This document shows, one piece after another, positions 1-61,486 of a DNA stretch of 64,000 bases. Position numbers and translations under genes: made by a program. How positions within the stretch are numbered: position 1 is the first letter of the stretch; each line of letters begins with the position of its first letter. The stretch is from an uncultured Acidobacteriota bacterium (GTDB lineage: Bacteria; Acidobacteriota; Thermoanaerobaculia; Gp7-AA8), in NCBI GenBank assembly GCA_963822445.1, contig CAWGHO010000001.1, positions 1,195,967 through 1,259,966 of the forward strand, in the 5' to 3' direction. Under the pieces are notes generated by a model. The model had not been told where the DNA came from. It did no database searches and saw nothing but the letters and a program-made list of their open reading frames with translations.

Positions 1-1316
1 CCCGTTCTGCCGTTCAAGACGCAGATCGACGTGCTTGCCGGCGCCGGTGAACTTGATCGCGTTCGAGAGCAGATTGCCGATGACCTGCTGCATGCGGTTC
101 GGATCGGCGGCGACCATCGTCGCGCGATCGTCGAGGTCCCAGGTCAGTTTCACGTCGCGTGCGGACGCGGCCGGCCGCGCCGTCGTGAGCGCGGCCTCGA
201 TGACATCGCCGATGCGGGTCGGCTTGAGATCGACCTGGAACTTACCGAGGACCATGCGCGAGACGTCGAGCATGTCGTCGATGAGGCGGGCCTGGAGACG
301 CGCGCTCGATTCGATGGTCTGCAGCGCTTCGTGTAACTCTTCGGGCTCGAAGTGTCCGGTGCGCAGGAACTGCACCCAGCCGAGGATGGAGGTCATGGGC
401 GTGCGCAGCTCGTGGGAGAGCGTGGCCAGGAAGTTGTCCTTCGCCCGATTCTGAGCCTCGGCCTCCTGATACCGCCGCTCCGCCTCGGCTGCCTGCGCCG
501 CGGCGCGCTTTTCAGTGACGTCGCGGAAGGTGATTACTGATCCGAGGAGATCGCCGCTCTCCTCGCGCATCGGCGATGCGCAGAACTCGACCGGGAAACT
601 CGTGCCGTCCGCGCGGAAGAACGTGTCCTGGATCTCGTCGTACGCCGAGTCGCCGTGCACGACCGCGTGCAGCCGGCAGCGTTTGACGTCGCAGGTCAGC
701 ACTCCCGGAAAGACGGGGTGAACCAGCGAGTGCATGTCGTTGCCTTTGATCTCTTCGACGGTGCGGCCGATCATCCGCGCCGCCGCCGGATTGACGAACG
801 TGGTCGAACCTTCCAGGCCTACGCCAAACACCCCTTCGGCCGCCGCGCGCAGGATCAGCTCGTTCTGCCTGATCAGCCGCGAGAGCTCGTGCGCCTGCCG
901 CTTGAATGCCTCGCGTTTGCGGAACAGCTCCACGAACACGTTGACCTTCGAGCGAAGGATCTCCGGGTGGAAAGGCTTGAAGATGTAGTCGACCGCGCCG
1001 AGCTCGTAGCCGCGGAAGACGTTCGTCTCGCTGCGGCTGAGTGCGGTGAGAAAGATGATCGGCGTGTCGCGGGAGCGGTCGCGCTGGCGGATGAGATTCG
1101 CAGTCTCGAATCCGTCCAGATCGGGCATCTGCACATCAAGGAGCACGACCGCGAAGTCCATCTGCAGCAGGTGCTTGAGCGCCTTCGCTCCGGAATCGGC
1201 CTGAACGGTGTTCAACCCCAGGTCGCTCAGGATCGACTCCAGAGCGAGGAGGTTGTTCGGCTGGTCGTCGACCAGCAGGATGTTCACGCGTTCGTCGTTC
1301 CCTGGCAGCGGCGTCA
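1..1316 (-). CDS. Response-regulator receiver-PAS-HisKA-HATPase_c hybrid sensor kinase, partial (C-terminus runs off the window start)
   Basis: Manual minus-strand translation from the ATG at 1316 gives MTPLPGNDERVNILLVDDQ (receiver start), then PAS, a LATLSHELRTP H-box and an NLLSNAIKFT N-box. The plus-strand ORF 655..1647 is its antisense artefact. Confidence 0.7.
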
Positions 1317-1404
1317 TCGGCTGCTCCGGCAATCGACGGTGCACTGGAGATCCCGCGTCTTCGCGCGGGATAAATTGAACTGTTCGTCTGTCATTGAAGT
1401 TCCG

Positions 1405-1974
1405 TCATCGGCTGCTCCGGCAAAGCTCGACGAGGAAGGGCCCGATGCGTTCGAGAGGCAAAATCCGATCCACGCGACCGGCAGCAATGGCAGCCTCGGG
1501 CATGGCCGGCGATTCGGCCGTCTTGGGGTCCTGGGCAATCACGAATCCGCCGCGCTGCTTGATGCGTCCTGCGCCGCGCGTCCCGTCGCTGTTCGCGCCC
1601 GTCAGAATGACTCCGATCACCGACTGCCCATAGGCATCGGCGGCTGACTCGAACAGCACGTCGATCGACGGCCGGGAGTACGCCACGGCGGCATCGACGG
1701 AGAGACTGAGCTCGCCATGTTCCGCGGTGCGCTCGACGAGCAGGTGATAGTTCGCCGGCGCAAGATACACATGCCCCGGCTGCAACCACTGCTTGTCATC
1801 CGCATCGACGACGCTCAGCGACGAGTGACGCCGGAAGTACGCCGGCAACGCTTCGCTCGACGTTTTGTAGCGATGCTGCGCGACGACGATCGGCACGCAG
1901 AATTCCTTGGGAAGTGACTCGAGGATGATGTGCAACGCGCGCATCCCGCCCATTGAGCAGCCGATGGCGATCAA
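1405..1974 (-). CDS. cheB: CheB-type protein-glutamate methylesterase, catalytic domain only (no receiver domain)
   Basis: 189-aa ORF. MIAIGCSMGGMRAL...HVYLAPANYHLLV...ILTGANSDGTRG match CheB methylesterase domain motifs. Confidence 0.85.
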   Translation of the reverse strand: MIAIGCSMGGMRALHIILESLPKEFCVPIVVAQHRYKTSSEALPAYFRRHSSLSVVDADDKQWLQPGHVYLAPANYHLLVERTAEHGELSLSVDAAVAYSRPSIDVLFESAADAYGQSVIGVILTGANSDGTRGAGRIKQRGGFVIAQDPKTAESPAMPEAAIAAGRVDRILPLERIGPFLVELCRSSR

Positions 1975-2058
1975 TTCGTACGTGCGCAGTGCCTCGCGCG
2001 TGACCCGGCCGTCTCGCCAGGAGCGAATACCGGGAGGAGAGTTGCGGTGCGGCCGCCA

Positions 2059-2913
2059 TCACCTCACCCTCCGGTACAGCTTCTCTTCCGCGTCGACGAC
2101 CTCGTAGCTGTCGGCCACGCCGGTGTATTTGATCGACTCCTTCTTGCCGAGGCCGAGGATGCCGAACATCTCCATCGACTGGAGGAAGAGCTCCTGCACG
2201 CGCTCCTGCAGGGCGTTGTTGAAGTAGATCAACACGTTCCTGCAGAAGATGACGTTGAAGTGATTGAACGACGCGTCGGTCACGAGGTTGTGCTGCGCGA
2301 AGACCACGTTCTCGCGCAGTGACGGGCGGAAGATCGCGTAGTCGTAGCGGGCGGTGTAGTAGTCGGAGAACGTTCCCGTACCGCCGCCGGTGATGTAGTT
2401 CGAGGTGTTCTCCTGCATCGTCGACAGCGGAAAGATGCCGGACTTGGCTTTCTGCAGGACGGCCTCGTTGATGTCGGTCGCATAAATCCGGCACCGGTCG
2501 TAGAGGCCCTCTTCCTGGAGAAGAATGGCCATCGAGTAGACCTCTTCGCCGGTCGAACAGCCGGCGTGCCAGATCCGGACGAACGGATAGGTGCGGAGGA
2601 TGGGGACGACCTTCGTGCGGAAGGCGAAGTAGAAGGTCGGGTCGCGGAACATCGCCGTCGTGTTGACGGAGAGGTCGAGAAGCAGGCGCTCCATGACTCC
2701 GGAGTCATGCAGCACTTTCTCGATGAGCCCCGAGACGGTGCTCAGCCCCTCGGCATAAACGCGCTTCCAGATCCGGCGGCGCAGGGAGGGCAGGGAGTAA
2801 TCGCGGAAGTCGAAGCCGTAGTGGCGGTAAATGCCCTCCGTCAGAAGGCGAACTTCGATCTCCTCCAGTTCCGCCCGGGTCTGTTCATCGTTGATGGCGG
2901 CGGGATTCGACAT
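2059..2913 (-). CDS. cheR: CheR-type chemotaxis protein methyltransferase
   Basis: 284-aa ORF with the CheR N-terminal helical domain and SAM-dependent methyltransferase motifs (RIWHAGCSTGEEVYSMAILL, ATDINEAVL, NVLIYF). Confidence 0.9.
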   Translation of the reverse strand: MSNPAAINDEQTRAELEEIEVRLLTEGIYRHYGFDFRDYSLPSLRRRIWKRVYAEGLSTVSGLIEKVLHDSGVMERLLLDLSVNTTAMFRDPTFYFAFRTKVVPILRTYPFVRIWHAGCSTGEEVYSMAILLQEEGLYDRCRIYATDINEAVLQKAKSGIFPLSTMQENTSNYITGGGTGTFSDYYTARYDYAIFRPSLRENVVFAQHNLVTDASFNHFNVIFCRNVLIYFNNALQERVQELFLQSMEMFGILGLGKKESIKYTGVADSYEVVDAEEKLYRRVR

Positions 2914-2992
2914 GTTGCTTCACACTGCTACAGAGCAAACGGCAGGCCGTCCACGCGCGCGGCGGCGGGGGCCGCCGCCGCGCGCGTGAACC

Positions 2993-4887
2993 TTACCGGT
3001 ACAACCAGACCCGGAGCAGGCTTACCAGCTGCTGCGCGTCAATCGGCTTGGTGATGTAGTCGCTCGCCCCTGCCTCCATGCACTTCTCGCGATCGCCCTT
3101 CATCGCTTTCGCGGTCAGCGCGATCATCGGCAGGTTCTTGTATTCGTCCATGCCCCGGATCCGGCGCATCGCTTCGTAGCCATCCATCTCCGGCATCATC
3201 ACGTCCATCAGCACGACGTCGATGTCTGCGTTCTGATTCAGCGCGTCGATGCCTTCCTGGCCGCTCTCCGCGTACAGCACCTTCATCTTGTGGCGCTCGA
3301 GCAGCGATGTCAGCGCGTAGATGTTGCGCATGTCGTCGTCGACGATGAGCGCCTTCTTACCGGCCAGCACGGGATCGGACTCGTGCAGTTGCTCGAGCAT
3401 CTTCCGCTTCTGCTCCGGCAGGTTTTCCTCGACGCGGTGCAGGAACAGCGCGGTCTCGTCGAGCAGGCGATCCGGCGAGCGGACGTCCTTGACGATGATC
3501 GCGTCGGCCATCCGCTTGAGCTCCGTCTCTTCCTTCCGCGACAGATCGCGGCCGGTGTAGACGACGATCGGCGTGTCGGTGAATTTCCAGCTCGGTCTTC
3601 ATCCGGTTGATGAAGTCGAAGCCGTTCATGTCCGGCAGGCCGAGGTCAAGGACCATGCAGTCGAAGCGGCGCTCGCGCAGCAGCTGCAGCGCCTCCTCGC
3701 CCGTTCCGACGGCGGTGATCTCGACGTCGCCTTCGCCGATCAGCTCCACGATCGCGTTCCGCTGGGCTTCGTTGTCTTCAATGACCAGCAGCGACTTGTT
3801 CGGCCGCTCGAGGAAGCCCTGGATCTTCGCGAACGCGTCGTCCAGCGCGTCTTTCGTGACCGGCTTCTGCATCTGCGCGAATGCGCCGAGGCGCAGGCCG
3901 CGCGCCGCCTTCTTCGTCGCGCGGAGATGATGTGCACCGGGATGTGCCGCGTGACCCGATCGTGCTTGAGACGATCGAGCACCGTCCACCCTTCCATGTC
4001 CGGCAGCTCGAATGTCGAGCGTGATGGCGTCGGGGCGGATAGCGCTCGGCAAGCTGCAATGCTGTTTCGCCGCGCGTCGCGACGATGCCTTTGAAGCCCT
4101 TCTCGTGCGCCATGTCGAGGAGGATTCGGGCAAACGCGACGTCGTCTTCGACGATGAGCACCGTGCGATCGCCCTTCCACGATGTTGTCGCGATCGTCCG
4201 GCACCTGCTCTTCGATCGATGACCAGTTGCTCCTCACGTTCAGCGCCGCGCGCCTCGCGAGACTCGCGGTCCGGCGAGGTCTCGGCATTGAAGGTCGGGA
4301 ACGTCAGCGGCAACGGGCGCTCGTCGGTGTTCCGGTCGCGGTCCCTATCACGGCGCGCGATCGGGGCCACATACGTCTGCGGCAGGTAGAGCGTGAACGT
4401 CGATCCGACGCCCTGCTCGGCTTTCCACGCGGATCTCGCCGCCGAGCAGTCTCGCGATCTCGCGGCTGATCGACAGTCCCAGTCCGGTGCCGCCGAACTT
4501 GCGCGTCGTCGACGCGTCGGCCTGCTGGAAGGCCTCGAAGATGATCCGCTGCTTCTCTTCGGCGATGCCGATGCCCGTGTCGGTGACGCTGAACGCGACC
4601 ACGCCCGGTGCACGGTCGAGCACGTCATGTCCGTGAGTCCAGCCCGACAGCGCCGTCTCCATCTTCAACGTCACGCCACCCTTTTCGGTGAACTTGAAGG
4701 CGTTGCCGAGGAGGTTCTTGAGCACCTGCTGCAGGCGCGTCGGATCGGTGTGGATGGTGTGAGGAAGGTTCTCGGACTGCTGGATGGTGAAGTCGAGATT
4801 CTTGTCGTTGGCGACCTGGCGGAAGGTCCGCTCGGTCAGCTCGCCGACCTCCCGGAACGCTACGTCCTGTAGCGCGACGGTCATCAT
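2993..4887 (-). pseudogene. C-terminal part of the poly-HAMP hybrid kinase: HATPase_c plus three CheY-like receiver domains, split by about five indel frameshifts
   Basis: Domain pieces lie in different frames. HATPase_c: 4348..4887, continuing as GSTFTLYLPQ in frame 3357..4628. REC1: [10 protein letters not shown] in 3778..4161 and [12 protein letters not shown] in 3740..4288. REC2: [11 protein letters not shown]...MVLDLGLPDMNGF in 3357..4628. REC3 is intact in 2993..3511. The breaks are indels only, with no stop-codon decay. Confidence 0.6.
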
Positions 4888-7800
4888 TCCGCGACTCGAT
4901 CTTCGACAGGTCGAGGATGTCGTTGATCAGCGTGAGCAGGTCCTGACCCGAGCCGTGAATCGTCTTCGCGAACTCGACCTGCTTCTCGGTGAGGTTCTGA
5001 TCCGGGTTGTCCGACAGCAGCTTGGCCAGGATGAGCAGCGAGTTGAGCGGCGTGCGCAGCTCGTGGGACATGTTCGCCAGGAACTCGCTCTTGTACTTCG
5101 AGGTGAGCGCGAGCTGGCGGGCTTTCTCTTCGAGCTGCCGCTTGGCCTGTTCGACCTCGCGGTTCTTCTGCTCGACCTCTTCGTTCTGCGCGGTGAGGAG
5201 GCGGGCCTTCTCTTCGAGCTCTTCGTTCGTCTGCTGCAGTTCTTCCTGCTGTTGCTTGAGCAACTCTTCCGAGGCCTGCAGCGATTTGGCCTGGGACTCG
5301 AGACGCTTGTTGGTCTCGGTGAGCTCTTCCTGCTGCGTCTGCAGCTCTTCGGCGAGCGACTGCGACTGGACGAGCAGCTCTTCCGTCCGCATGTTCGCCT
5401 GGATGGTGTTGAGCACGACGCCGATCGACTCGGTGAGCTGATCGAGCAGCGACTGGTACGTCTCGGTGAACCGCTGGAAGGAGGCCAGCTCCATCACCGC
5501 CAGCACCTGGCCTTCGAAGACGATCGGCAGGACGATGATGTTCAACGGCTTGGATTCGCCGAGGCCGGAGTTGATCTGCACGTAGTCTTCAGGCGCGTCC
5601 GTGATGAGAATGCGCTGCTTCTCGAACGCGGCCTGTCCGACCAGCGACTCGCCGATGCGGAACTCCTTGTTGAGATGCTTGCGCTCCTTGAACGCGTACG
5701 ACGCCGCAAGCTTGAGGCGCGGCTCCGATCCGCTCGAATCCATGACGTAGAACACGCCGTGCGCGGCACTGACCACCGGCGCGAGCTCGCTGAGGATCAT
5801 CTGCGAGACGTTGGTCAGGCTCTTCTGCCCCTGCATCATCCGCGTGAACTTGGCGAGGTTCGTCTTGAGCCAGTCCTGCTCGGCGTTGCGCGACGTGGTC
5901 TCGCGCAGGTTGACGATCATCGAGTTGATGTTGTCTTTCAGGGCCGCGACTTCACCCTGCGCCTGCACGGTGATGTTCCGCGTCAGGTCGCCCTTGGTCA
6001 CGGCCGTGGCGACGTCGGCGATGGCGCGCACCTGCGTGGTGAGATTCGCGGCGAGCTGGTTGACGTTGTCGGTGAGGTCTTTCCACGTTCCCGCGGCGCC
6101 CGGCACGTTTGCCTGACCGCCGAGGCGTCCTTCGACACCGACCTCGCGCGCAACCGTGGTGACCTGATCGGCGAATGTAGCGAGCGTCTCGATCATGTCG
6201 TTGATCGTGTCGCCCAGCTCCGCGATCTCGCCTCGTGCTTCGACGGCGAGCTTCTGCTTCAGATTTCCTTTGGCGATCGCCGTCACGACCCGGGCGATAC
6301 CGCGCACCTGACTGGTCAGGTTCGCGGCCATCATGTTGACGTTGTCGGTGAGGTCCTTCCACGTGCCGGCCACGCCCTTGACCTGGGCCTGACCGCCGAG
6401 CTTCCCTTCCGTGCCGACTTCGCGAGCGACGCGCGTGACTTCCGAAGCGAAGGAGTTGAGCTGATCGACCATCGTGTTGATGGTGTCCTTCAGCTCGAGG
6501 ATCTCGCCCTTGACGTCGACGGTGATCTTCTTCGACAGATCGCCGTTCGCGACGGCCGTCGTCACCTGGGCGATGTTGCGCACCTGGTTGGTGAGGTTGG
6601 ACGCCATCATGTTGACGTTGTCCGTCAAGTCTTTCCACGTACCGGAGACTCCCCTCACCTGGGCCTGACCGCCAAGCCGGCCTTCGGTACCGACCTCGCG
6701 GGCCACGCGCGTGACTTCCGAGGCGAAGGAGTTCAGCTGATCGACCATCGTGTTGATGGTGTTCTTCAGCTCGAGGATCTCGCCGCGCACATCGACGGTG
6801 ATCTTCTTCGACAGATCACCGAGTGCGACGGCGGTAGTCACTTCGGCGATGTTGCGCACCTGCGCGGTGAGGTTCGAGGCCATGGAGTTGACCGAGTCGG
6901 TCAAGTCTTTCCACGTACCGGAGACGCCTTTGACTTCGGCCTGACCGCCCAGCCGCCCTTCCGTGCCGACCTCGCGAGCAACGCGCGTGACCTCCGCCGC
7001 GAACGAGTTGAGCTGGTCGACCATCGTGTTGATGGTGATCTTCAGCTCGAGAATCTCGCCGCTGACTTCGACGGTGATCTTCTTCGACAGATCGCCGTTC
7101 GCGACGGCGGTGGTGACCTGGGCGATGTTGCGCACCTGATTGGTCAGGTTCGACGCCATCATGTTGACGTTGTCGGTGAGGTCCTTCCAGGTACCGGCCA
7201 CGCCTTTGACCTGCGCCTGGCCGCCCAGCTTTCCTTCGACGCCGACTTCGCGCGCGACGCGCGTGACTTCCGAGGCGAAGGAGTTGAGCTGATCCACCAT
7301 CGAGTTGATGGTGTTCTTCAGCTCGAGGACCTCGCCTTTGACGTCGACGGTGATCTTCTTCGAGAGATCGCCGTTCGCGACGGCGGTTGTGACGTCGGCG
7401 ATGCTGCGCACCTGCGCGGTGAGGTTCGCGGCCATGTAGTTGACCGAGTCGGTCAAGTCTTTCCACGTGCCGGAGACTCCCTGCACGTCGGCCTGGCCGC
7501 CGAGCTTTCCTTCCGTACCGACTTCGCGCGCCACGCGCGTGACTTCGGCAGCGAACGAGCGGAGCTGATCGACCATCGTGTTGATGGTGTTCTTCAGCTC
7601 GAGGATCTCGCCTTTGACCTCGACGGTGATCTTCTTCGACAGGTCGCCGTTTGCGACGGCCGTCGTGACCTCGGCGATGTTGCGCACCTGGCCGGTGAGG
7701 TTCGAGGCCATGTAGTTGACCGAGTCGGTCAGATCCTTCCACGTGCCGGCGACGCCCTTCACTTCGGCCTGGCCGCCGAGCATGCCTTCCGTGCCGACCT

Positions 7801-10240
7801 CGCGCGACACGCGCGTGACTTCCGATGCGAAGGCCGAAAGCTGATCGACCATCGTGTTGATCGTTTCTTTGATCTGCAGGATCTCGCCGCGGACGTCGAC
7901 CGTGATCTTGCGTGTCAGATCGCCGCTGGCGATTGCCGTCGCGACGCCGGAGACGTCACGCAACTGGACGGTGAGGTTTGAGGCCATGGAGTTGACCGAG
8001 TCGGTGAGGTCTTTCCACGTACCGGCGACGCCTTTGACCTCGGCCTGCACGCCGAGCTTCCCTTCCGTTCCGACTTCCCGCGCGACGCGCGTCACTTCGG
8101 CGGCGAAGGAGTTGAGCTGATCGACCATCGTGTTGATGGTGTTCTTCAGCTCGAGGATCTCGCCGCGCACTTCGACGGTGATCTTGCGCGACAGATCGCC
8201 GAGTGCGACGGCCGTCGTCACCTCGGCGATGTTTCGCACCTGCGCGGTCAGGTTGCCGGCCATGGCGTTGACCGAGTCGGTCAGGTCCTTCCACGTTCCT
8301 GCAACGCCAGGCACTTCTGCCTGACCGCCGAGCTGTCCTTCCGAGCCGACCTCGCGAGCGACGCGCGTGACTTCCGACGCGAACGCGCTGAGCTGATCGA
8401 CCATCGTGTTGATGGTGTTCTTCAGCTCGAGGATCTCGCCGCGGACATCGACGGTGATCTTCTTCGACAGATCGCCCATGGCGACGGCGGTGGTGACGTC
8501 GGCGATGTTTCGCACCTGCGCGGTGAGGTTGCCGGCCATCGAGTTGACCGAGTCGGTGAGGTCTTTCCACGTGCCGGCCACGCCTTTGACTTCGGCCTGG
8601 CCGCCCAGTTTTCCTTCCGTTCCGACTTCGCGGGCGACGCGCGTGACTTCCGAGGCGAAGGAGTTGAGCTGATCGACCATCGTATTGATGGTGTTCTTCA
8701 GCTCGAGGATCTCACCGCGGACTTCGACGGTGATCTTCTTCGAGAGGTCGCCCATGGCGACCGCGGTCGTGACCTCAGCGATGTTGCGCACCTGGTTGGT
8801 GAGGTTCGAGGCCATCGCGTTGACCGAGTCGGTGAGGTCTTTCCACGTGCCTGCGACACCGGGCACTTCGGCCTGGCCGCCGAGGCGTCCTTCCGTGCCG
8901 ACTTCGCGGGCGACGCGCGTGACTTCCGACGCGAACGCGCGGAGCTGATCGACCATCGTGTTGATGGTGTTCTTCAACTCGAGGACTTCGCCGAGCGCTT
9001 CCGCGGTGATCTTCTTCGACAGATCGCCGTTCGCGACGGCGGTCGTGACCTCGGCGATGTTGCGGACCTGACTGGTGAGGTTCGCGGCCATGTAGTTGAC
9101 CGAGTCCGTCAAGTCTTTCCACGTACCGGAGACGCCCTGCACTTCCGCCTGGCCGCCGAGTTTTCCTTCCGTACCGACTTCGCGAGCGACGCGGGTGACT
9201 TCCGAGGCGAAGGAGCGGAGCTGGTCGACCATCGTGTTGATGGTTTCCTTCAGCTCGAGGATCTCGCCGCGCGCTTCGACGGTGATCTGTTTGGAGAGAT
9301 CGCCGTTCGCGACGGCGGTGGTGACCGCGGCGATGTTGCGAACCTGATTGGTGAGGTTCGCGGCCATGTAATTCACGGAATCCGTCAAGTCTCTCCACGT
9401 ACCGGAGACACCCTGCACATCTGCCTGACCGCCCAGCTTTCCTTCCGAACCGACTTCGCGGGCAACACGGGTGACTTCCGAGGCGAAGGAGCGGAGCTGA
9501 TCGACCATGACGTTGATGGTGTTCTTCAGCTCGAGGATCTCGCCGCGCACTTCGACGGTGATCTTCTTGGAGAGGTCGCCGGTAGCGACGGCCGTCGTGA
9601 CTTCGGCGATGTTGCGGACCTGGGAGGTGAGGTTCGCAGCCATGAAGTTGACCGAGTCCGTCAAGTCTTTCCACGTACCGGAGACGCCCTTGACGTCGGC
9701 CTGGCCGCCCAGCTTTCCTTCGGTGCCGACTTCGCGAGCGACGCGCGTGACTTCCGACGCGAACGAGGCCAGCTGCGTGACCATCGTGTTGACTGTTTTC
9801 GCCGTCCGCAGAAACTCACCCTTGAGCGGCCGGCCGTCGAACTCGATGGCCATGGTCCGGGTGAGATCGCCCTTCGCGACCGCGCCGATGACGCGCGCGA
9901 TCTCGTTGGTGGGCTGGACGAGGTCGGTGACCAGGTTGTTGACCGCGTCGGCCATGACCGCCCACTGGCCGTTGGCCGCGGGAGCCTTCAGCCGCTCGTT
10001 CAGCTTTCCCTCTTTGCCGACGACCGTCGAGATGCGCTCGATCTCGGATGAGGTCCGCTCGTTGAGCTCGAGGATGTCGTTGAGAGTGTCGGAAATTTTT
10101 CCCTGAACGCCGGTGAAGTCGACGGGCATCCGCACGCGGAAATCGCCCTTCTTCATCGACGTGAGAGTGCGCAGCAACAGCCGGTCGAAGTCCTTCGGGC
10201 CAAGCTCAGTGGCCTTGTCGACGCCAATGCCCGTGGTCAT
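4625..10240 (-). CDS. Giant sensor kinase: N-terminal HAMP-like, then about 15 tandem HAMP repeats (poly-HAMP), GAF, an E/Q-rich coiled coil and HisKA; reading frame is lost near 4885
   Basis: 1871-aa ORF with a 92-aa (276-bp) unit repeated roughly 15 times (…[57 protein letters not shown]…). GAF region [17 protein letters not shown]…, H-box [14 protein letters not shown]. The frame is lost after LDLSKIES and continues in the fragments listed as pseudogene 2993..4887. Confidence 0.8.
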
Positions 10241-10402
10241 ACGCGGGTTCTCCTCCGAGGTGAGGTAATCAATTGTGCTGAAACGGATTAGCAGGCTGGA
10301 CGGTCCCTCGCGGACGAGGGCTGATTCAGTCTTGGGAGGGGGGTGAATGCAAGTGAAGTGCCGTTATGGTTGAGTGTGGTTTCGGGCGAATCGGATGCCG
10401 AA

Positions 10403-10497
10403 GGAGGGCGGCCGCCCCGGCCGCCCTCGCTGGGCACCTTGCCCGGCGATTAGCACCGGGCGAGGCGCCCGGTGCGAGGCGAGCGAGGCGCTCGCCC
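10403..10497 (-). terminator. Cluster of three GC-rich perfect hairpins downstream of the propeller kinase, upstream of the poly-HAMP kinase start
   Basis: GAGGGCGGCCG-ccc-CGGCCGCCCTC (10403-10427), GCACCGGGCG-agg-CGCCCGGTGC (10453-10475) and GCGAGCG-agg-CGCTCGC (~10479-10495). None has a T-tract, as is common in high-GC genomes. Confidence 0.35.
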
Positions 10498-10512
10498 TCC
10501 GAGACGGTTCGG

Positions 10513-13500
10513 TCAGCGAACCGGTACGGCCCGCACCGGTATCACCACCCGGAACGTGCTCCCCTCCCCCTCCTCACTCTCCACCTCCACCACCCCGCCG
10601 TGCAGCTCGGTGAAGCGCTTCACCACGGAGAGGCCGAGGCCTGTGCCTTGGGGGCGGCGGGTGCCGGGTGGGTGGATCTGGCGGAACTCGTCGAAGATCG
10701 CGTGCTGGTCCTCGGGGGCGATGCCGATGCCGTGATCGATGACCGACACGGCGATGGAGTCGGTGCGGATTGGCGACTCCATCGCCGGCAGGAGGCGGGC
10801 GACGATCTGCACCTTCGAGCGATCGGGCGAAAACTTCACGGCATTCGAGACGAGGTTGTAGAGCACCTGTTTGAACTTGATGCCGTCGACCACGATCATC
10901 CCGATGTCCGGTGAGAGATCGAACTCGAGATCGATGCCGCGCGGGATGGTGATGCCCTTGAGCACGCGCGCCACGCTGTCGAGCGTCTCGCGCAGAACCA
11001 CCGGCTCGAGGTCGAGACTCATCTTCCCCGCCTCGATCTTCGCCAGGTCGAGGATGTCGTTGATGAGCGTCAGCAGATGCTCGCCGGAAACGGAGATGTT
11101 GTTGAGGAAGCGCATCTGCCGCTCGGTGAACGTCGCTTTCTCGCCGTCGCGCAGCAGCACGCCGGCGAAACCGATGATCGCGTTAAGGGGCGTGCGCAGT
11201 TCGTGGGAAACGTTCGCCAGGAAGATGCTCTTGGCCTGATTCGCCGACTCGGCCTCGATCAACGCCGCCTCGATGTCGCGCGTGCGGGCGGCGACGACGT
11301 CCTCCAGCTCCTTCTCGCGGCGTTTGCTCACGTACACGCGGCGCTGCTGGAGCAACCACACCAGCGAGACGAGCAGCAGAAGGATCAGCAGCGGGAACCA
11401 GAGCGTCTGCACGAACTTCCGCTCGACCTTCATGGCCAGCGATGCGCCCTGGCGGTTCCAGGCGCCGTCCGCGTTCGCGGCGATCACCTGAAAGCGGTAC
11501 TCGCCGGGCGGCACGCCTGTGTAGAACGCGACGCGGCGCTGGCCGGGATCGACCCAGTCCCGGTCGAATCCCTCCAGCCTGTAGCGAAATTTGACTTTCA
11601 TCGGCGACGCGTAGGTCAGCGCGGCGTAACGGAATTCGATGTGTTGCGTGTCCGGCGGGATGACCAGCTTCGTCGAAACCGGCACTTCACGCCCATCGAC
11701 GATGGCCGCTTCGAGACGAACGGGCGGCGGCCGCGGATTTCTGAGCGCCGCGTCGCGCGGCGCGATCGTCGCCACGCCATCGACCGTTGAAAACCAGAGC
11801 CGCCCGTCGCGCGAGCGCATGGCCGCTGGATACGTGCTGCCGTTGCACTCCACGCTGCGGACACCGTCGCCTGCTCCGTAGACTTCCGAGGTTACGCGGG
11901 TGCGTTTGCCGGCGGCGACTTCCTCGAGCTCGCGCGCGGTGACGCTCCAGATGCCCCGTCCGCCGCCGAACCAGAACCGGCCGCTCGCGTCCTCGAGCAA
12001 CTGCATGACCTTGTCGCTGAAGAGTCCCGAGTCGACGGTGTAGCGCGTGAAGCGGCCGTCCTTCATGCGGATCAACCCCGCGCTGTCGGTGCCGATCCAG
12101 ACCGTGCCCGCCGCATCTACATGCAGCGCAAGAACATGTGAGTCGGGCAACCCTTCCGCCTCCGTCCAGGTCGTGAACCTGCCGTTCTGATGACGAGCGA
12201 TGCCGCGGCCGTCGGTACCGATCCAGATGCTGCCGTCGGGCGCGGCAGCGAATGCCTGCACGAAGGTCGCGTTCCATCGCGGGCCGGGCAGGAGCCTTTC
12301 GAACTTCCCGTTGGTGTATCGCGTGAGGCCGCGATCGGTGCCGATCCACAGCTGCCCTTCCCTGTCGAAGAAAAGCGCGCGAACGGTGCGGCTGGAAAGT
12401 CCGTCCGCTTCTCCGAACGTCGTCACGCGCCCGTTGGCGAAGCGATTCAATCCCGTCGGCGTGCCTACCCACATCGCCCCGTCCGGCGCCTCCGCGAGAC
12501 TGAGCACGTAGTCGTTCGTGAGTCCATCCTTCGTGGTGAAGGTCGTCTTCTCCCGGCCGGTGAACCGCGTGAGACCGTTCGCGGTGCCGATCCAGATGTT
12601 GCCCGCGCGGTCTTCGAGCACCGTGCGCGCGTACGAATCGACCAATCCTTCCGGTCTACCCACCGTGACGAACTTGCCGCGGGTCAGGCACTCCAGGCCA
12701 CCGTTCGTGCCGACCCAGATGTTCTTTTCGACGTCCTCGAACAGCGAGCGGACGGAGTTGTTGAGGAGCCCTTCACCGGTGGTGAAGCGATCGACCTCGC
12801 CGCCGGCGATCCGAAAGAGACCGTTGCTGTACGTCCCGATCCACAGCGTGCCGTCGGAATCGTGCAACAGCGCCGTGACCTGCTCTTCGGGGATTCCCTC
12901 GATGCGCTGGACGTCGGCGGCGATCCGATGCAGACCCTGATTCGTTCCGGTCCAGACCGTGCCGTCGCGATCGGCGAGGATCGCGTAAACCGACGCGGTC
13001 GAAAGCTGCGGCGCAACCGGCGCGACCACGCCGTTGCGCAGCACGAGCAGTCCGCTGCCGCGCGTTCCGACCCACAACGCGCCGTCGGGCGCGATGGTGA
13101 GCGACAGAACGGAGATGTCCGGGATGACCGGCTTCTCCACGCGGCCGTTGCGATACGCGCACAGCCCCGCCGAAGTCCCGATCCACACCGTCCCATCCCC
13201 CGCCTCGGCCAGCGCCGCCACGATGTCGCTCGGCAGGCCTTCCTCCATCCCGAGAACGCGAACCTTTCCATCGCGCAGCGAGCCCGCACCGCCGCCGTTC
13301 GTGCCCGCCCACAACGTTCCGTCGCGGCTCTTCATCAGCGCGAGCACGGTGTCGCGGCGCAATGCGGGCAGGTTCTTCTTGTCGAAACGGGTGAAGGTCT
13401 CGCCGTTGAATCGCGCCAGACCTTCGTACGTGGCGACCCAGATGTAGCCGTCGCTGGTCTGCAGGATTCCGCGCACGACGCTGTTCGGAAGTCCGTCCTC

Positions 13501-13659: not shown

Positions 13660-14886
<1,227 letters not shown>

Positions 14887-14904
14887 GAGTCACGCGCTCC
14901 GCGC

Positions 14905-14939
14905 GGATTGAGGATTGAGGATTGAGGATTGAGGATTCA
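14905..14939. repeat. Tandem heptamer (GGATTGA)x4 plus GGATTCA
   Basis: Direct reading of the sequence. It lies between the stop of the upstream permease paralogue (TGA at 14937-39, inside the last unit) and the ATG of the intact permease (14886). Confidence 0.9.
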
Positions 14940-16190
14940 TTCGTATCTCAAAGCCTCGATCGGATCCAACCGCGATGCCGTCAGCGCCGGCGCGAATCCC
15001 GAGAAGATTCCGGTCAGGGTCGACACGAACAGACCGGTGATCACCAGCCCGACCGAGAACTTCAGCGGGAACGACGGGAACGCTGCCGCGACCGCGGCGC
15101 AGAGCAGCCAGGAGAGAGTCAGTCCGATGACGCCGCCGACGAGGCAGATCGAGACCGCTTCGATCAGGAACTGCAGAAGGATCGTGCGGCGCCGCGCGCC
15201 GACGGCCTTGCGCGTGCCGATCTCGCGCGTCCGCTCTTTCACGCTGACGTAGGTGATGTTCATGATCCCGATCGCGCCGACGAACAAGCGCCAGGCCGGT
15301 CACGAAAAGGCCGGCCACGGCGATGCCGCTCTTGATCGGATCGATCGTGCTGCGCAGCGCCTGCTGCTCGTTGATGGAGAAGTCGTTCTTCTGCTCCGGG
15401 CGAAGACCGCGCACGCGGCGCATCGCCCCGGTCAACTCGTCCGTCGCCGCTCCCATCCGGTTCTTGTCGCGAACCTTCACGCGGATCGACGTATCGAGTC
15501 GCGAGCTGAATGCTTTCTGAAATGCCGGCAACGGCACGACGGCATACGTGTCGAAGCTGAACAGCCCGAGAAACGTCCCCTGCTTCGCGTAAACGCCGAT
15601 GACCTTGAACGGCGTGCCGCTGATCATCACCGTCTTGTCGAGGGGGCGCTCGTTCGGGAAGAGTGCTTCGGCGACGTCGAATCCGAGGATCACTACGTTG
15701 CGGCCGGAGCGCGCTTCGGGCTCGTTGAAGAAACGCCCCTCGCGGAACGACGACGTCGACGTGACCAGAAACTCGTCGGTCGTCCCCTGCGTGAACACGC
15801 CGCGCACTTCGTTGTCCGCGTACTTCACGCTGCGCATGGTGTTGATCGTCGGCACGGCGATCATCAGCTCGGAGTTCGGCGTCGCGTCGATGATCCGCTG
15901 CAGGTCCTGCGCGTACCGCGACTGCATCGTCCGGCGGTTGCGGTAGTTCCACCAGTCGTCGACGTGTCGACCACGGCCATTTCTCGACGTAGAGGATGTC
16001 ATCGCCGATCACGGCCAGACTGCGCTCGAACCCCGTTTCGATCCCGCCGATCGCCGAGCCCATGAGCGTGACGGCGATGATGCCGATGATCACGCCGAGG
16101 GCCGTGAGCGCCGAGCGCATCTTGTGCGCACGGATGACCAGCGCCGCGATGCGGAAGGATTCGGTGATCTCGGTGAGGAGGTCGATCATG
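14937..16190 (-). pseudogene. Second MacB/FtsX-family permease (paralogue), split into three frames by two indel frameshifts
   Basis: N-terminus MIDLLTEITESFRIAALVIRAHKMRSALTALGVIIG in ORF 15260..16279. Middle periplasmic domain in 14890..16002. C-terminal FtsX domain …VKERTREIGTRKAVGA…DPIEALRYE in 14937..15287. Confidence 0.7.
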
Positions 16191-30658: not shown

Positions 30659-31036
30659 TTGGATTCCGCCGAGATTGAACGAGCTGTTTGGGTTGCGACA
30701 GGCGTCGCGGCAATCACCGCGGCTCTGCTCACAGTCGTTGTGTATTACCTTCAACAACTTACCGTCGCCACCACCGGCATGCGCGTGCTTGGCAGCGTTG
30801 CCGCTTTGCTTCTGTCGTTCGGCGTCTACATCTTTGCGGCAGTCGTATTTTCTATCGTCATAAACGCACAGTTGCGGCAGACGAGTTCCGAGGGAGCGTT
30901 GAGCGTGCCTTGGTCAACTGTCTTCATTCACCCAGGGCCCTTGCACAAACTGGCACCCCTCTTCGCAATAGCTGCAACTTGGGCAACTCTTGCTTTCGTC
31001 GCTAGGCGACACCGTTCGCGAGAAATCGCTGGCTAA
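30659..31036 (+). CDS. Cassette ORF, small membrane protein (125 aa, 2-3 TM helices)
   Basis: Hydrophobic helices AVWVATGVAAITAALLTVVVYYL and LGSVAALLLSFGVYIFAAVVFSIV. The stop TAA is embedded in the attC inverse core GGCTAAC. Confidence 0.55.
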   Translation: MDSAEIERAVWVATGVAAITAALLTVVVYYLQQLTVATTGMRVLGSVAALLLSFGVYIFAAVVFSIVINAQLRQTSSEGALSVPWSTVFIHPGPLHKLAPLFAIAATWATLAFVARRHRSREIAG

Positions 31037-31968
31037 CTGTTGCGTCTCAGGACGTTGTTCCGATCCAGGCGACTGATGGGTGGATTGTAAGAGAGCGCGG
31101 TATGCGCTCGGTGGTAGTTGTAGAAGTGAAGGTACGGTGCGAGCCAACGGCGCCGTTCCTCGGAGCTGTGGTACGAGAACCGATAGGCCCATTCGCGCAG
31201 CAGCGTCTGGATGAACCGCTCCGCTTTACCGTTCGTCCGTGGTGTGTACGGCCGGATGCGGACGTGAGTGAGGTTCAGGCGGCTGCAGGTATCCCGGAAG
31301 TCGCGTGAGATGAAGGCCGATCCGTTGTCGGTCATCACCCGCTCGACGATGACATTCCGCTGAGCGAACCACGCCACCGCCCGAGTCAAAAACGAGCTGG
31401 CAGTCTCGCTACGCTCATCTGCCAGGACGTCGACGTAGGAGAGTCGGGTGAAGTCATCCGTCGCGACGTACACGAACTCGAAGCCCTGCTTCTTTGAGCC
31501 AAACGATCGACGCCTGGTGATGCGGTGTCCCACTCGATTGAACCGTCCCAGGCGCTTGATGTCGATGTGCACCAGTTCCCCCGGACGCTCCTTCTCGTAC
31601 CGAATTGGCACTGTTGCCGGCTCAAGCTGACGCAACCGAGCCAGCCCTGCTGACCGGCAGATCCGCGCTGCTGTCGACGCACTCACGCCCACTGCCTGCG
31701 CGATCTGTCGCACAGTCCGCCATTCGCGGCGAAGACTCAGAACACGCTGTCGTTTTATGTCGCTCGTGGCCCGGCCCCTGTGCGGTCTGGAGCTCCGATC
31801 GTTAAGCGGCTCGACCCTCAGACCACGACGGATCCACTCCCGCCCTCGCCGGTCACTCATACCGGCGGCCTCCGACGCCTCGCGCACCGACCATCCTTGT
31901 TCGCAGACTCGCTTGACCAGCAGTGCTCGACTCAACGGGCAGCTTCGCGCATTCTTGTGCACGTCCAT
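31033..31968 (-). CDS. IS481-family DDE transposase (integrase-core type)
   Basis: 311-aa ORF with an N-terminal helix-turn-helix and an rve integrase core (…HIDIKRL…VYVATDDFTRLSYV…TDNGSAF…). Its TAG stop lies in the duplicated target (plus-strand cta at 31033-35), as is typical for IS481. Confidence 0.85.
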   Translation of the reverse strand: MDVHKNARSCPLSRALLVKRVCEQGWSVREASEAAGMSDRRGREWIRRGLRVEPLNDRSSRPHRGRATSDIKRQRVLSLRREWRTVRQIAQAVGVSASTAARICRSAGLARLRQLEPATVPIRYEKERPGELVHIDIKRLGRFNRVGHRITRRRSFGSKKQGFEFVYVATDDFTRLSYVDVLADERSETASSFLTRAVAWFAQRNVIVERVMTDNGSAFISRDFRDTCSRLNLTHVRIRPYTPRTNGKAERFIQTLLREWAYRFSYHSSEERRRWLAPYLHFYNYHRAHTALSYNPPISRLDRNNVLRRNS

Positions 31969-32071
31969 CTGGGTTCCTTCCTGTCAACCTGTTCGTTTGA
32001 GAGCTTTCAGATTGACGAAAGTCGCCCGGATGGACAACCCGCTTCAAGGAACAACGTCCTGACACATCACA
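31038..32071 (-). mobile_element. IS481-family insertion sequence (1034 bp) with 25-bp imperfect terminal inverted repeats and a 6-bp target-site duplication GCTAAC
   Basis: Left end TGTTGCGTCTCAGGACGTTGTTCC; reverse complement of the right end TGTGATGTGTCAGGACGTTGTTCC. Flanking direct repeats GCTAAC at 31032-37 and 32072-77. It is inserted exactly in the attC R'' core. Confidence 0.8.
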
Positions 32072-50311: not shown

Positions 50312-51064
50312 TCACGGTTTGACGCAGACCCGTCCCGTGTAATCGATCCGGTGCAGCAACGGCCGCGGGCGCAGCCGGTCCAGATACTCGTCCGTCGCTT
50401 TCCGCGCCCCACGCCAGTAACCGTAATCGTCGACGATCAGCACGCCGCCGCGAACGAGGTGCGGGTAGAGATGCTCGAGCTCGTGCCGCGTCGAGGCGTA
50501 CCAGTCCGTGTCGAGGCGAAGCAGCGCGAGCGCGTCGGGCGCGGATTCCGGCAACGTCGTCATGACGTCCCCTTCCACGAAGCGGAAGCGCTCGAAGGGA
50601 TAGCCGGTCCGGCGGAGATTCGCCGCCACCGCGGCCCGCGACGCAATGCCCCAGAACGGATCGTCAGCACTGCGCGGGTGCTGCTCCAGAATTTCGGCAG
50701 CGGTGCGTCCGCTCATCTCCTGCACGTCCTCGGCGGTCGGCGCGGTCATGCCGCCGAAGGTGTCGTAGAGCCAGAGATTGCGCGTCGTATCGCCGTGGCG
50801 CAGCAGCGTCAGCGCCATCAGCATCAGCGATCCGCCGCGCCACACACCGCATTCGGCGAAATCGCCCGCGAGCCCGTTCTCCGCGACATAGCGCGTCGCC
50901 GACCAGAGCGCGTACATCCGCTCCAGCGAGGTCATGGTGTGCTCGCGGCAGAGCTCGTAAAGCTCGAGGAACTCCGGCTCGAGATCGAACTGGTGGCTCA
51001 CGCGCCGATGATCGTCCGCGGGCCCATTTGTGCGACCTCGGAGCGCGGACTGATGAGGAGCCAT
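50312..51064 (-). CDS. TylF/MycF-family (macrocin-type) SAM-dependent O-methyltransferase
   Basis: DLEPEFLELYELCREHTMTSLERMYALWSATRYV…GDFAECGVWRGGS…LYDTFGGM…DTDWY are characteristic TylF-family blocks. Confidence 0.75.
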   Translation of the reverse strand: MAPHQSALRGRTNGPADDHRRVSHQFDLEPEFLELYELCREHTMTSLERMYALWSATRYVAENGLAGDFAECGVWRGGSLMLMALTLLRHGDTTRNLWLYDTFGGMTAPTAEDVQEMSGRTAAEILEQHPRSADDPFWGIASRAAVAANLRRTGYPFERFRFVEGDVMTTLPESAPDALALLRLDTDWYASTRHELEHLYPHLVRGGVLIVDDYGYWRGARKATDEYLDRLRPRPLLHRIDYTGRVCVKP

Positions 51065-52752
51065 GGACTGGCGACTTCCGACCGGACGATCTCCGGCAGG
51101 ATCGGCGTGAGCATCAACATATTGATCCGTGGATCTCTGGTAAACGGCTGCCGCAGAATCGCGAGCAACTCCGCATGATCGGGATGCGACGGCGAGGTCA
51201 CGTCGGCTTTCGCGAAAACGCTCTCGTCGAACGAGCCGTAATTCGTCAGACGCTGCAGCCAGATGCTGTCGACGCCGAGACGGTCGCCGAGGGCGATGAA
51301 GTCGGGAAGCTCGCGGAAGTTGTCGGCCTGGACGACGAAGTTGATCTGCAGACGGCGGATCTCCCCGGACGCGCGCATCCGCGCGATCAGCTCCAGGTTT
51401 TCCATGAGCACGTTCCACTTGCCGGGGCGGCGCAGCCGCTCGTAGGTCTCGGCCCGGGCGGCGTCGATGGAGATCGAAAGATTGCCGATCATCTCCGGCA
51501 GCTCGGGGAACTCGGCCCATCGCTTCGCGGTGAGCAGCTGCGCGTTCGTGATCAGGAAGACATACAGCCCCGGAAAGTCGTTCCGGTTCAGCGAGGCCAG
51601 GATCTTCCGGTAGTGCGTGCTCGAGAACGCCTCACCGCCGCCGGAGATGTAGGTCATGCCGGTCATTTTGCGCAGGAGCGGGAGCAGCACGCGGTCCGCG
51701 GACTCGAGGTAGACCCGCTGCTCGTCGGGTCCGGCCGTGACGATGCCGGTCCGGCACGACGGGCAGGCCAGGTTGCAGGTCTGGTCGTGATTCATCTCCA
51801 CCATGCCCGGCGACTCTTCGACGACGAGAGTGCGCTCGGCGATGTAGCGGAGCAGAAGGGGATCGGTGACCTCCGTTTTTTTCGGCAGGGAGCGGCCGGC
51901 GATGTACGAGCAGAGCGTGCGGCTGCAGTACTTGAAATCGCCGTCGTGGATGGAGCGCCGGATCTCCACGGCCGCCTCCGAATTCCAGATCGCCTCGGCA
52001 GACGGCGCCTCGACCACGTTGCCGACCGGATAGGGCACCCATGCCGAGCAGGAGCAGGCGAAGGCGTCGCCCCTGAAGCTCGTCGAAAGATGCGTGAACG
52101 GCATCGGGCAGAACCTGTCGCTGAGGTCGTAGGCCGTTTCCGGAACGGCGCGCGCGAGTAACTGCTGCGCGGTCTGACAAACCGCCTGCATCCGCAGTGC
52201 GCGCCGGATGAGCGGCGTTGCTTCGTCCGTTCTGCCGCGATCGAGGAGCAGTTCGGCATGCACCAGCAGCGCTGCACGATCGTCAGGGGCGTGCTCGGCG
52301 ACGGCCGCCGCGACCATCGCGGCATCGCCACCGAACGGCGGTTCCGGCGCAACGTACTCGGCAAGCGCACGAAGGGCAGCCATGCGAACGGAAATGTCGA
52401 CGTAGGACTGCATCCCCGCGGGGCGGAAGCTCGCCTTGGCGATGTGCGAGATCGCGATGAGCGAGTCTAAAAACGCCTTGCGCGCAGTGCCGTCGCCGCT
52501 CGTGACGGAGGACGCCAGCGCGCGGAGCCGCACGGCTTCGAAGGCCAGGAGGCGCATTGCCTGGACCGGCGCGCCGCTGCGTGACTCGAAGTGCATGAAC
52601 GCGCCGCGGATCGTTTTCAGCGCAGCGCGTCCTCTGCGCCAGGCCATCGTGGACGCGACTTCGTACCTGACCCGTCCGGCGATCTCCCTCATCAGGAGCC
52701 GGGTGGGGGCGGGGATGAGCCGGGTCGCGACACGCCGGACGGAGGTGGTCAT
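50998..52752 (-). CDS. Radical SAM enzyme with an N-terminal helical/TPR-like region and a Cys-rich pre-domain (paralogue 2)
   Basis: CNLACPSCR radical SAM triad, preceded by FCPMPF…CSCSAWVP…YCSRTLC. Overlaps the downstream methyltransferase start by 67 bp. Confidence 0.7.
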   Translation of the reverse strand: MTTSVRRVATRLIPAPTRLLMREIAGRVRYEVASTMAWRRGRAALKTIRGAFMHFESRSGAPVQAMRLLAFEAVRLRALASSVTSGDGTARKAFLDSLIAISHIAKASFRPAGMQSYVDISVRMAALRALAEYVAPEPPFGGDAAMVAAAVAEHAPDDRAALLVHAELLLDRGRTDEATPLIRRALRMQAVCQTAQQLLARAVPETAYDLSDRFCPMPFTHLSTSFRGDAFACSCSAWVPYPVGNVVEAPSAEAIWNSEAAVEIRRSIHDGDFKYCSRTLCSYIAGRSLPKKTEVTDPLLLRYIAERTLVVEESPGMVEMNHDQTCNLACPSCRTGIVTAGPDEQRVYLESADRVLLPLLRKMTGMTYISGGGEAFSSTHYRKILASLNRNDFPGLYVFLITNAQLLTAKRWAEFPELPEMIGNLSISIDAARAETYERLRRPGKWNVLMENLELIARMRASGEIRRLQINFVVQADNFRELPDFIALGDRLGVDSIWLQRLTNYGSFDESVFAKADVTSPSHPDHAELLAILRQPFTRDPRINMLMLTPILPEIVRSEVASPWLLISPRSEVAQMGPRTIIGA

Positions 52753-61417: not shown

Positions 61418-61486
61418 GAACTGGTTAGGGTACCACCGGCCCCGATGATCGCCTCGCCGTGAAACGCTTTCGCGGCCATCGCCACT

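Follow-up and report, generated by a model that had tools for sequence, protein, structure and literature searches.

A CheR/CheB-containing operon with a poly-HAMP hybrid kinase in an acidobacterial genome: a probable RsbK-type methylatable two-component module

We analysed a 64-kb stretch of DNA from an uncultured Acidobacteriota bacterium (contig CAWGHO010000001.1), the whole of which is called the window below. Its first 10,240 positions carry four genes, all on the minus strand and in the order giant hybrid histidine kinase, CheR, CheB lacking a receiver (REC) domain, and REC-PAS kinase, as read from open reading frames (ORFs), translations and Pfam matches. The locus is probably an RsbK-type methylatable two-component module, in which CheR and CheB would set the output of the giant kinase through the helix between its GAF and HisKA domains, with no chemoreceptor taking part. 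This reading draws on sequence comparison and on analogy with the RsbK-RsbM pair of Bacillus cereus. The gene content of the locus, its homology and synteny, and the lack of any methyl-accepting chemotaxis protein (MCP), CheA or CheW are direct observations. Regulation of a kinase by methylation of this helix is already known from the published B. cereus RsbK mechanism; the window locus is an acidobacterial, poly-HAMP, three-REC variant that includes a CheB. It would carry the RsbK/RsbM principle into Acidobacteriota and over to a kinase whose poly-HAMP sensor is exceptionally long and conserved in length, in a version with a dedicated demethylase.

Kinship with RsbK and RsbM

The giant kinase, a soluble hybrid histidine kinase of the RsbK/CfcA type, spans 2993..10240, as delimited by its ORF, three-frame translations, Pfam and an alignment to the intact orthologue at locus L003 (DASWOB010000005.1; kinase at 2644-9918 within an operon at 2644-11499). 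Pfam matches and a reading of the heptads place the following core downstream of the sensor array: a GAF domain (residues 1473-1610, nucleotides 5411..5824; GAF_2, 3.3e-18); a long signalling helix (S-helix, residues 1618-1716, nucleotides 5093..5389), the predicted substrate of CheR and CheB; HisKA, the dimerisation and histidine phosphotransfer (DHp) domain (residues 1717-1783, nucleotides 4892..5092; 3.6e-20), with the H-box SHELRTP and its histidine at residue 1726; HATPase_c (4396..4749; 3.9e-26 on ORF 4348-4887); and C-terminal receivers. Three receiver domains lie within 3014..4180, REC1 at ~3900-4180, REC2 at ~3590-3800 and REC3 at 3014-3349 (Response_reg, 3e-14, 2.1e-20 and 1e-29, respectively), and all three retain the acceptor Asp. 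The adjoining cheR gene (2059..2913) is intact and encodes a 284-residue CheR-type protein-glutamate methyltransferase of the RsbM/CheR3 subfamily (CheR_N plus CheR, 1e-39).

Both proteins have their relatives in RsbK and RsbM. In a collection of plasmids, the kinase core from GAF to HATPase is 50-62% identical to kinases of Azospirillum, Rhizobium, Mesorhizobium, Novosphingobium, Methylocystis and Deinococcus, and a Streptomyces kinase matches in the same range over part of the query only. Identity is about 40% to kinases of Sphingomonadales, Rhizobiales, Burkholderiales and Bacillus. Among these is a kinase on the B. thuringiensis plasmid pBMB0231 (39.8%, 7e-75), whose position beside rsbY, rsbV, rsbW and sigB marks it as an RsbK homologue. 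With the CheR encoded between rsbK and rsbY-sigB-rsbW-rsbV in Bacillus sp. N5-665, a true rsbK-rsbM-rsbY-sigB cluster, the window CheR shares 49.3% identity (2e-95), and it shares 53.7% with the product of a Niallia taxi gene that lies between an RsbK-like kinase gene and rsbY, in the order rsbK-cheR-rsbY.

The first-pass annotation had called for a survey of CheR/CheB genes beside kinases that are not MCPs, and such pairs proved to be common, in Thermoanaerobaculia and on proteobacterial plasmids. The best isolate relatives of the window CheR are all encoded beside kinases of the RsbK type: such a kinase gene is directly upstream at nine of the nine loci retrieved with CheR (Niallia, Sphingopyxis, R. 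oryzihabitans, Brucella, Sphingomonas, Caballeronia SBC1, Rhizorhabdus, Neorhizobium and Bacillus sp. N5-665), and Deinococcus deserti, retrieved by its kinase match, has the same kinase-CheR arrangement. CheRs of the RsbM subfamily adjoin RsbK-type kinases in Bacillota, Deinococcota, Alpha- and Betaproteobacteria and Acidobacteriota. The helices of these kinases share their repeated heptads, SEELQxQSEELRVSNEELEE in Alpha- and Betaproteobacteria and TEELQTQSEELQAQSEELQ in Bacilli, with the window helix.

A search with the helix alone (99 residues) against 1.84 billion cluster representatives returned 1,523 proteins at E<=1e-3, 254 of them at E<=1e-10. All 44 long matches that we scanned contain kinase-type domains (HisKA in 43, HATPase_c in 39, GAF in 38 and REC in 34), and many matches of the search end in ...RVWLY, as the window kinase does. 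Their N-terminal sensors vary (HAMP, CHASE3, dCache, 4HB_MCP, ETR1_N, NIT or PAS). Since the 44 matches scanned are all kinases of this type, the helix is the signature of one kinase family. CheB-CheR-fused PAS kinases, which we had expected the helix motif to retrieve, were absent from these 44 matches.

In B. cereus, RsbK and RsbM form a sigma-B stress module (PMC4574943, and Chen et al. 2012 as cited). RsbK has the architecture CHASE3-HAMP-GAF-S-helix-HK-CA-REC, where HK and CA denote the histidine kinase and catalytic and ATP-binding domains (PMC4574943). RsbM, a CheR-type enzyme encoded in the same operon, methylates the RsbK signalling helix, as seen in vitro with 14C-labelled S-adenosylmethionine (PMC4574943; PMC12848376). 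This methylation is required to hold sigma-B off, co-expression with RsbM saturates the methylation sites, and the C-terminal REC of RsbK is inhibitory, RsbM strengthening the interaction between REC and helix (PMC4574943). The same study counted 127 RsbK-like kinases in 10 phyla (PMC4574943), and de Been and colleagues had earlier noted that RsbK and CheR are associated in genomes, as cited in PMC12848376. The window locus resembles this pair in the GAF, signalling helix, HisKA, HATPase and REC core, in the CheR-type gene immediately downstream, and in the repeated (S/T/Q)EELQxQ heptads of the helix. It differs in its sensor, a soluble array of 15 di-HAMP units as opposed to the membrane-bound CHASE3-HAMP of RsbK; in having three REC domains and not one; in belonging to the Acidobacteriota; and in its partner, a REC-PAS kinase where RsbK has the PP2C phosphatase RsbY and a sigma-B partner switch. 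No SpoIIE/PP2C, STAS or sigma factor genes were found among the window ORFs scanned. The window also has a dedicated REC-less CheB, whereas B. cereus RsbM is an orphan and RsbK methylation is apparently one-way because there is no paired esterase.

That CheR and CheB act on the coiled coil between GAF and HisKA had been proposed from the letters of the DNA, and the RsbM-RsbK precedent together with the homology of CheR and kinase makes this the best-supported reading, by analogy. From it we infer that the window kinase is methylated, at which sites and in which direction this acts, and what CheB and the second kinase do, as follows. A cytoplasmic, dimeric hybrid kinase would have two sensing parts, a rod of some 30 HAMP domains and the GAF domain, and the signal would reach the DHp/CA core along a parallel coiled coil that has polar a positions and is marginally stable. 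The co-transcribed RsbM-type CheR would methylate exposed Glu residues of the EE-L heptads, the predicted sites being the second Glu of the pairs (E1639, E1667, E1674 and neighbours), and the REC-less CheB, which may be constitutively active or controlled in trans, would remove the methyl groups and could deamidate Gln. The level of methylation would alter the packing of the helix and so reset kinase output without the involvement of a chemoreceptor, CheA or CheW. If RsbK is a guide, methylation probably steadies a C-terminal receiver in inhibitory contact with the helix or DHp domain, and the kinase would be held off. The REC-PAS kinase is likely to act as a phosphorelay partner or to provide feedback.

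Several members of the kinase family have neighbours of their own. The cassettes on plasmids of Brucella, Rhizorhabdus and B. thuringiensis (L092, L095 and L100) adjoin genes for catalase, general stress proteins, Hsp90 and CsbD; such cassettes are often found beside stress genes, which fits a role of the family in the general stress response. On plasmid p1 of Streptomyces fungicidicus (L099) a poly-HAMP-GAF-helix kinase gene lies directly upstream of genes for SpoIIE phosphatases, several STAS proteins and an anti-sigma factor, an RsbK/RsbY-like partner-switching output in Actinomycetota without CheR.

The signalling helix as a putative methylation substrate

The E/Q-rich heptad coiled coil that the first-pass annotation placed between GAF and HisKA is real. 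It covers residues 1618-1716 (nucleotides 5389-5093) and consists of 14 unbroken heptads with Leu or Val at each seventh residue. When the register is set with Leu at d, Asn, Gln or Ala is found at a and the Glu-Glu pairs at b and c, which are exposed. The motif EE[LVIM] occurs seven times where 1.0 is expected, and none of 5000 shuffles reaches seven. Across Thermoanaerobaculia the helix is almost invariant; the only indels, of +7 and -28 residues, preserve the heptad register.

The suggested likeness to the EE/QQ methylation motifs of chemoreceptors did not hold up. A search of the linker for the relaxed pattern [AST]xx[EQ][EQ]xx[AST] gave one match against 0.67 expected in shuffles (P = 0.5), which is the chance level, and the classical MCP consensus ([ASTG][ASTG]xx[EQ][EQ]xx[ASTG][ASTG] or EExxA[ST]) has no match in the helix. 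A CheR-tethering pentapeptide of the NWETF kind, which had also been proposed as a check, is absent from the C-terminus of the kinase: the ending ...LLRVWLYR is the last helix of REC3, and it is conserved in homologues without CheR as well. Alternation of E and Q at fixed positions is a hallmark of MCP methylation sites; among the orthologue helices we found only two E-to-Q changes (QQQEL in L001 and L050).

Several observations weigh against the proposal that this helix is the substrate. It lies outside the MCP methylation consensus, and sites are therefore not predictable by chemoreceptor rules. The core QEEL..TNEEL is kept in homologues that have no CheR less than 9 kb away (Novosphingobium aromaticivorans, Sphingobium TomTYG65 and Caballeronia NK8); because the EE-L core is retained in such CheR-less homologues, the motif is at least partly a structural trait of the family. 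Mutants of the Pseudomonas putida cfc cluster, a related cassette described below, showed no phenotype in the crinkly-colony assay when genes other than cfcA were affected (PMC4951495), and in the literature that we found no methylation or demethylation has been demonstrated in any version of the cassette that contains CheB. In addition, the reading frames of the kinase and of cheB are broken in the present assembly, as discussed in the last section. The EE pairs are degraded in the CheR-less kinases of Rhizobium (AEL, REL, EQL) and Methylocystis and partly in that of Azospirillum. The mean EE[LVIM] count is 3.3 with an adjacent CheR versus 1.8 without, in a small and phylogenetically non-independent sample where a trans-acting CheR is possible.

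These points bear on an alternative in which CheR and CheB act on some other substrate (a chemoreceptor encoded elsewhere, the REC-PAS kinase or some further protein), while the helix is a structural linker whose charge pattern tunes its stability. The retention of the motif without CheR and the failure of the MCP consensus speak for it, as does the silence of the P. putida cfcB and cfcC mutants in the same assay (PMC4951495). One relative, L077, can be added to these: it is one of two relatives without a kinase gene upstream of cheR (none within the available 10 kb), and it has the sole match to the MCP signalling domain at any relative's locus (1152-1571, E 2e-15), 8.4 kb upstream of cheR. 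However, in RsbK this very helix is the demonstrated target of the homologous CheR, RsbM (PMC4574943), and the same CheR subfamily adjoins RsbK-type kinases in all of the phyla named above. MCPs are absent from the window and from 79 of 80 relatives' loci, and the PAS-HisKA linker of the REC-PAS kinase contains no EE heptads. We regard a different substrate as unlikely, and favour methylation of the giant kinase on its signalling helix.

CheB, the second kinase and the conserved cassette

The placement of CheR and CheB between two histidine kinase genes, as first described, agrees with our gene order. The cheB gene (1405..2059) encodes a methylesterase/deamidase consisting of the catalytic domain only: Pfam reports CheB_methylest alone (2.7e-58), with no REC, and the extent of the gene follows from alignment to the CheB of L003. 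Orthologues are 188-214 residues long and likewise have no N-terminal receiver domain. CheB does not begin at the TTG codon at 1974; homology reaches up to an ATG at 2059. This ATG overlaps the CheR stop codon (TGATG), an overlap by which translation of cheB is coupled to that of cheR. The final gene of the operon (1..1317), identified by translation, Pfam and its orthologues, encodes the REC-PAS-HisKA-HATPase kinase; it starts near 1317 and is cut by the window start, orthologues being 523-551 residues long. A scan upstream of the giant kinase gene for a sigma-70 promoter or a terminator gave no match.

Translation of the giant kinase starts at 10240, intact orthologues have about 2,424 residues, and the N-terminus as read from the sequence has no hydrophobic segment, so that the kinase is predicted to be cytoplasmic. 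Pfam finds 15 HAMP and 15 HAMP_2 stretches across residues ~100-1460, and Tandem Repeats Finder describes this poly-HAMP array (5967..9792) as an indel-free tandem repeat of 276 nucleotides, or 92 residues, corresponding to one di-HAMP unit, in 13.9 copies. The alternation of HAMP and HAMP_2 in a ~92-residue repeat is shared with poly-HAMP proteins such as P. aeruginosa Aer2 with its di-HAMP units, and the NCBIfam Aer2 model matches the window kinase in 14 stretches. The 92-residue repeat also recalls the HAMP repeats in fungal group III hybrid kinases. In most Thermoanaerobaculia orthologues the length of the kinase is steady at ~2,390-2,431 residues, two others being shorter by exactly three 92-residue units, and the number of di-HAMP units is therefore conserved. 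The count of 15 is kept across most Thermoanaerobaculia species at 14-20% nucleotide divergence (loci L006-L085). Between species (window versus L013, L014, L022 and L034) nucleotide identity is ~86% for the kinase gene versus 72-80% for cheB and 79-82% for the REC-PAS kinase gene.

A scan of species-representative genomes with a CheR alignment yielded 383 relatives, of which the best 80 loci were used; nearly all are metagenome-assembled genomes (MAGs) of Thermoanaerobaculia/Acidobacteriota. The scan gave close Thermoanaerobaculia relatives only and is suited to synteny, diversity being supplied by the plasmid collection. Across Thermoanaerobaculia CheR is 83-98% identical. The operon kinase-CheR-CheB-REC-PAS-HK is conserved in these best 80 of 383 species-level relatives, and cheB follows cheR at each locus where the contig extends far enough. 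At the 63 assessable loci the giant kinase gene is directly upstream of cheR in 46, lies 0.8-7.7 kb upstream in 15 and is absent in two. Where there is a gap it holds other genes, for example those for a beta-lactamase and an HK/OmpR pair (L004/L005, 6315-9917). Because 15 of 63 loci have genes between kinase and cheR, the trio cheR-cheB-REC-PAS-HK behaves as a separable unit.

Nor is the arrangement out of the ordinary or novel, since the cassette is widespread and already annotated. The order hybrid kinase, CheR, REC-less CheB, REC-containing kinase is annotated on plasmids of Sphingopyxis, Brucella anthropi, Sphingomonas, Rhizorhabdus wittichii (Swit_5353-5356) and Neorhizobium, and the helix motif given above for Alpha- and Betaproteobacteria is common to these plasmid cassettes and the window. 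In the cfcABCDE cluster of P. putida, CfcA (a hybrid kinase with CHASE3, GAF and three receiver domains) activates the diguanylate cyclase CfcR, CheR3 and CheB3 (CfcB and CfcC) have no chemotaxis role, and CfcD contains a REC domain (PMC4951495; bioRxiv 10.1101/2024.11.25.625174). The window operon matches this cluster in its hybrid kinase with GAF, HK and three REC domains, its CheR, its REC-less CheB and its REC-containing kinase, in the same order. It differs in that CfcA is membrane-bound, with a CHASE3 sensor and no poly-HAMP array, a comparison made by published domain description and not by sequence.

Other relatives lack parts of the cassette. The poly-HAMP hybrid kinases of Azospirillum and Rhizobium, whose cores are 50-62% identical to that of the window kinase, differ in having no adjacent CheR/CheB and a REC-(PAS)-HK gene directly next to them. 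The isolate homologues closest to the poly-HAMP kinase, L086, L088, L097, L098, L101 and L103 (plasmids of Azospirillum, Rhizobium, Novosphingobium, Methylocystis and Sphingobium; 50-62% identity in the core), all lack CheR/CheB; since these keep the kinase-kinase pair, CheR/CheB is an optional add-on. In Azospirillum B510 and N. aromaticivorans a hypothetical gene and two DUF5985 genes come after the REC-(PAS)-HK gene. Plasmid 2 of Deinococcus deserti (L087) has poly-HAMP kinase, CheR and REC-PAS-HK, with no CheB detected, and the cassette is followed by a gene for a GAF-GGDEF diguanylate cyclase (14472-16157), which echoes the link from CfcA to CfcR and cyclic di-GMP.

The CheB-containing cassette is very widespread, occurring in Thermoanaerobaculia, Sphingomonadales, Rhizobiales, Burkholderiales and the P. 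putida cfc cluster, and such loci are good material on the question of whether ordinary two-component kinases adapt by reversible methylation. More tentatively, the window operon may be a complete chemoreceptor-free adaptation circuit, in which CheR and the REC-less CheB reversibly methylate the helix of the ~30-HAMP kinase and the REC-PAS kinase feeds back on the methylation state; we consider this stronger form possible but doubtful. If true, it would give a conventional two-component kinase both a memory and an adaptation of the kind that is so far documented for MCP arrays only. The comparison with adaptation of Tar and Tsr by CheR and CheB runs through the same enzyme families, an exposed Glu/Gln-rich coiled-coil face downstream of HAMP, and the resetting of kinase output by reversible methylation, which for the window kinase is a proposal. 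The differences are that the window system has no MCP signalling domain, CheA, CheW, MCP consensus or NWETF-type pentapeptide, that its CheB has no REC domain, and that the kinase itself is the proposed substrate.

Genes for CheR and CheB normally serve chemotaxis, and the last gene of the operon is cut by the edge of the window, which leaves room for a reading in which the operon is a fragment of a canonical chemosensory pathway with MCP, CheA and CheW just outside. In intact relatives, however, the REC-PAS kinase gene comes last and is followed by unrelated genes (for a methyltransferase, Lactamase_B and TPR proteins), and no MCP/CheA/CheW cluster, such as might have been met past the window start, was found beside the operon. 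Searches by tblastn with the MCP signalling domain gave no match in the 64-kb window or at 79 of 80 relatives' loci, and Pfam detected no MCPsignal, CheW or CheA domain in 30 ORFs over 10.3-62.6 kb. The initial statement that these components are missing thus stands for the window and for the neighbourhood of the operon in relatives. What is more, the window CheR scores only 70-105 bits against solved chemotaxis CheRs and 88 bits versus a cut-off of 435 on the NCBIfam chemotaxis CheR equivalog, and its CheB lacks the REC domain. A truncated chemotaxis cluster is highly improbable, and we retain the RsbK-type module.

Assembly integrity and surroundings of the operon

The description of a giant poly-HAMP hybrid kinase is right as to domain content, but in the present assembly the gene is not one intact ORF. 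Compared with the intact orthologue it carries eight 1-nt insertions, at ~4892, 4420, 4179, 4038, 4012, 3921, 3903 and 3583. The frame is lost just past HisKA: HATPase_c is in a different frame because of the insertion at ~4892, and REC1 and REC2 are split over other frames by the 1-nt insertions. A ninth 1-nt insertion near 2038 separates the first ~7 codons of cheB from the remainder. All nine fall within 2038-4892 and none in the remaining ~7.3 kb of the operon; no shared sequence motif is evident around them.

The insertions are probably assembly errors, namely long-read consensus errors in strain-variable segments, because all are +1 and lie in the least conserved segments. The alternative is that the module in this genome is a decaying pseudogene cluster, in which the catalytic and receiver parts of the kinase and cheB are truly frameshifted and nothing is regulated. 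Clustering of the insertions favours such decay, the chance under a uniform spread over the operon being ~1e-5 as calculated from the positions, yet the clustered segments are the least conserved ones, where errors from mixed-strain consensus would be expected. A spectrum made up of nine single-base insertions and nothing else is not that of natural mutation, and the translated sequence outside them retains 65-93% identity to intact orthologues. Beyond the operon, a frameshift likewise splits a MacB/FtsX permease gene, with MacB_PCD in ORF 14893-16008 and FtsX in another frame (14940-15299). Furthermore, the operon is similarly fragmented on other contigs with long-read-style names (L001 and L080; for example contig_2555 and contig_10975), while in short-read MAGs its genes are intact and the kinase has 2,424 residues. 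Decay of the module is, on this evidence, improbable, and the operon probably encodes an intact RsbK-type module.

The ORFs at 10.3-62.6 kb encode other sensor kinases, Ser/Thr kinases, a GGDEF protein, transporters, Kelch proteins, an IS481 transposase and glycosyltransferases. Between 29600 and 35600 third-position GC is below that of the rest of the window, and an IS481-family transposase gene lies at 31036-31983; this segment may be recently acquired DNA. The product of ORF 27466-28470 matches eukaryote-type PRMT oligomerisation domains (PRMT_C, 8e-17, and PRMT5_C), an unusual feature for a bacterium. A TIR-domain protein (TIR_2, 4e-13) encoded at 61463-62464 adjoins genes for ABC-2/Wzt polysaccharide export, and two neighbouring radical-SAM proteins, one of them with a SPASM domain, are encoded at 51001-54656.

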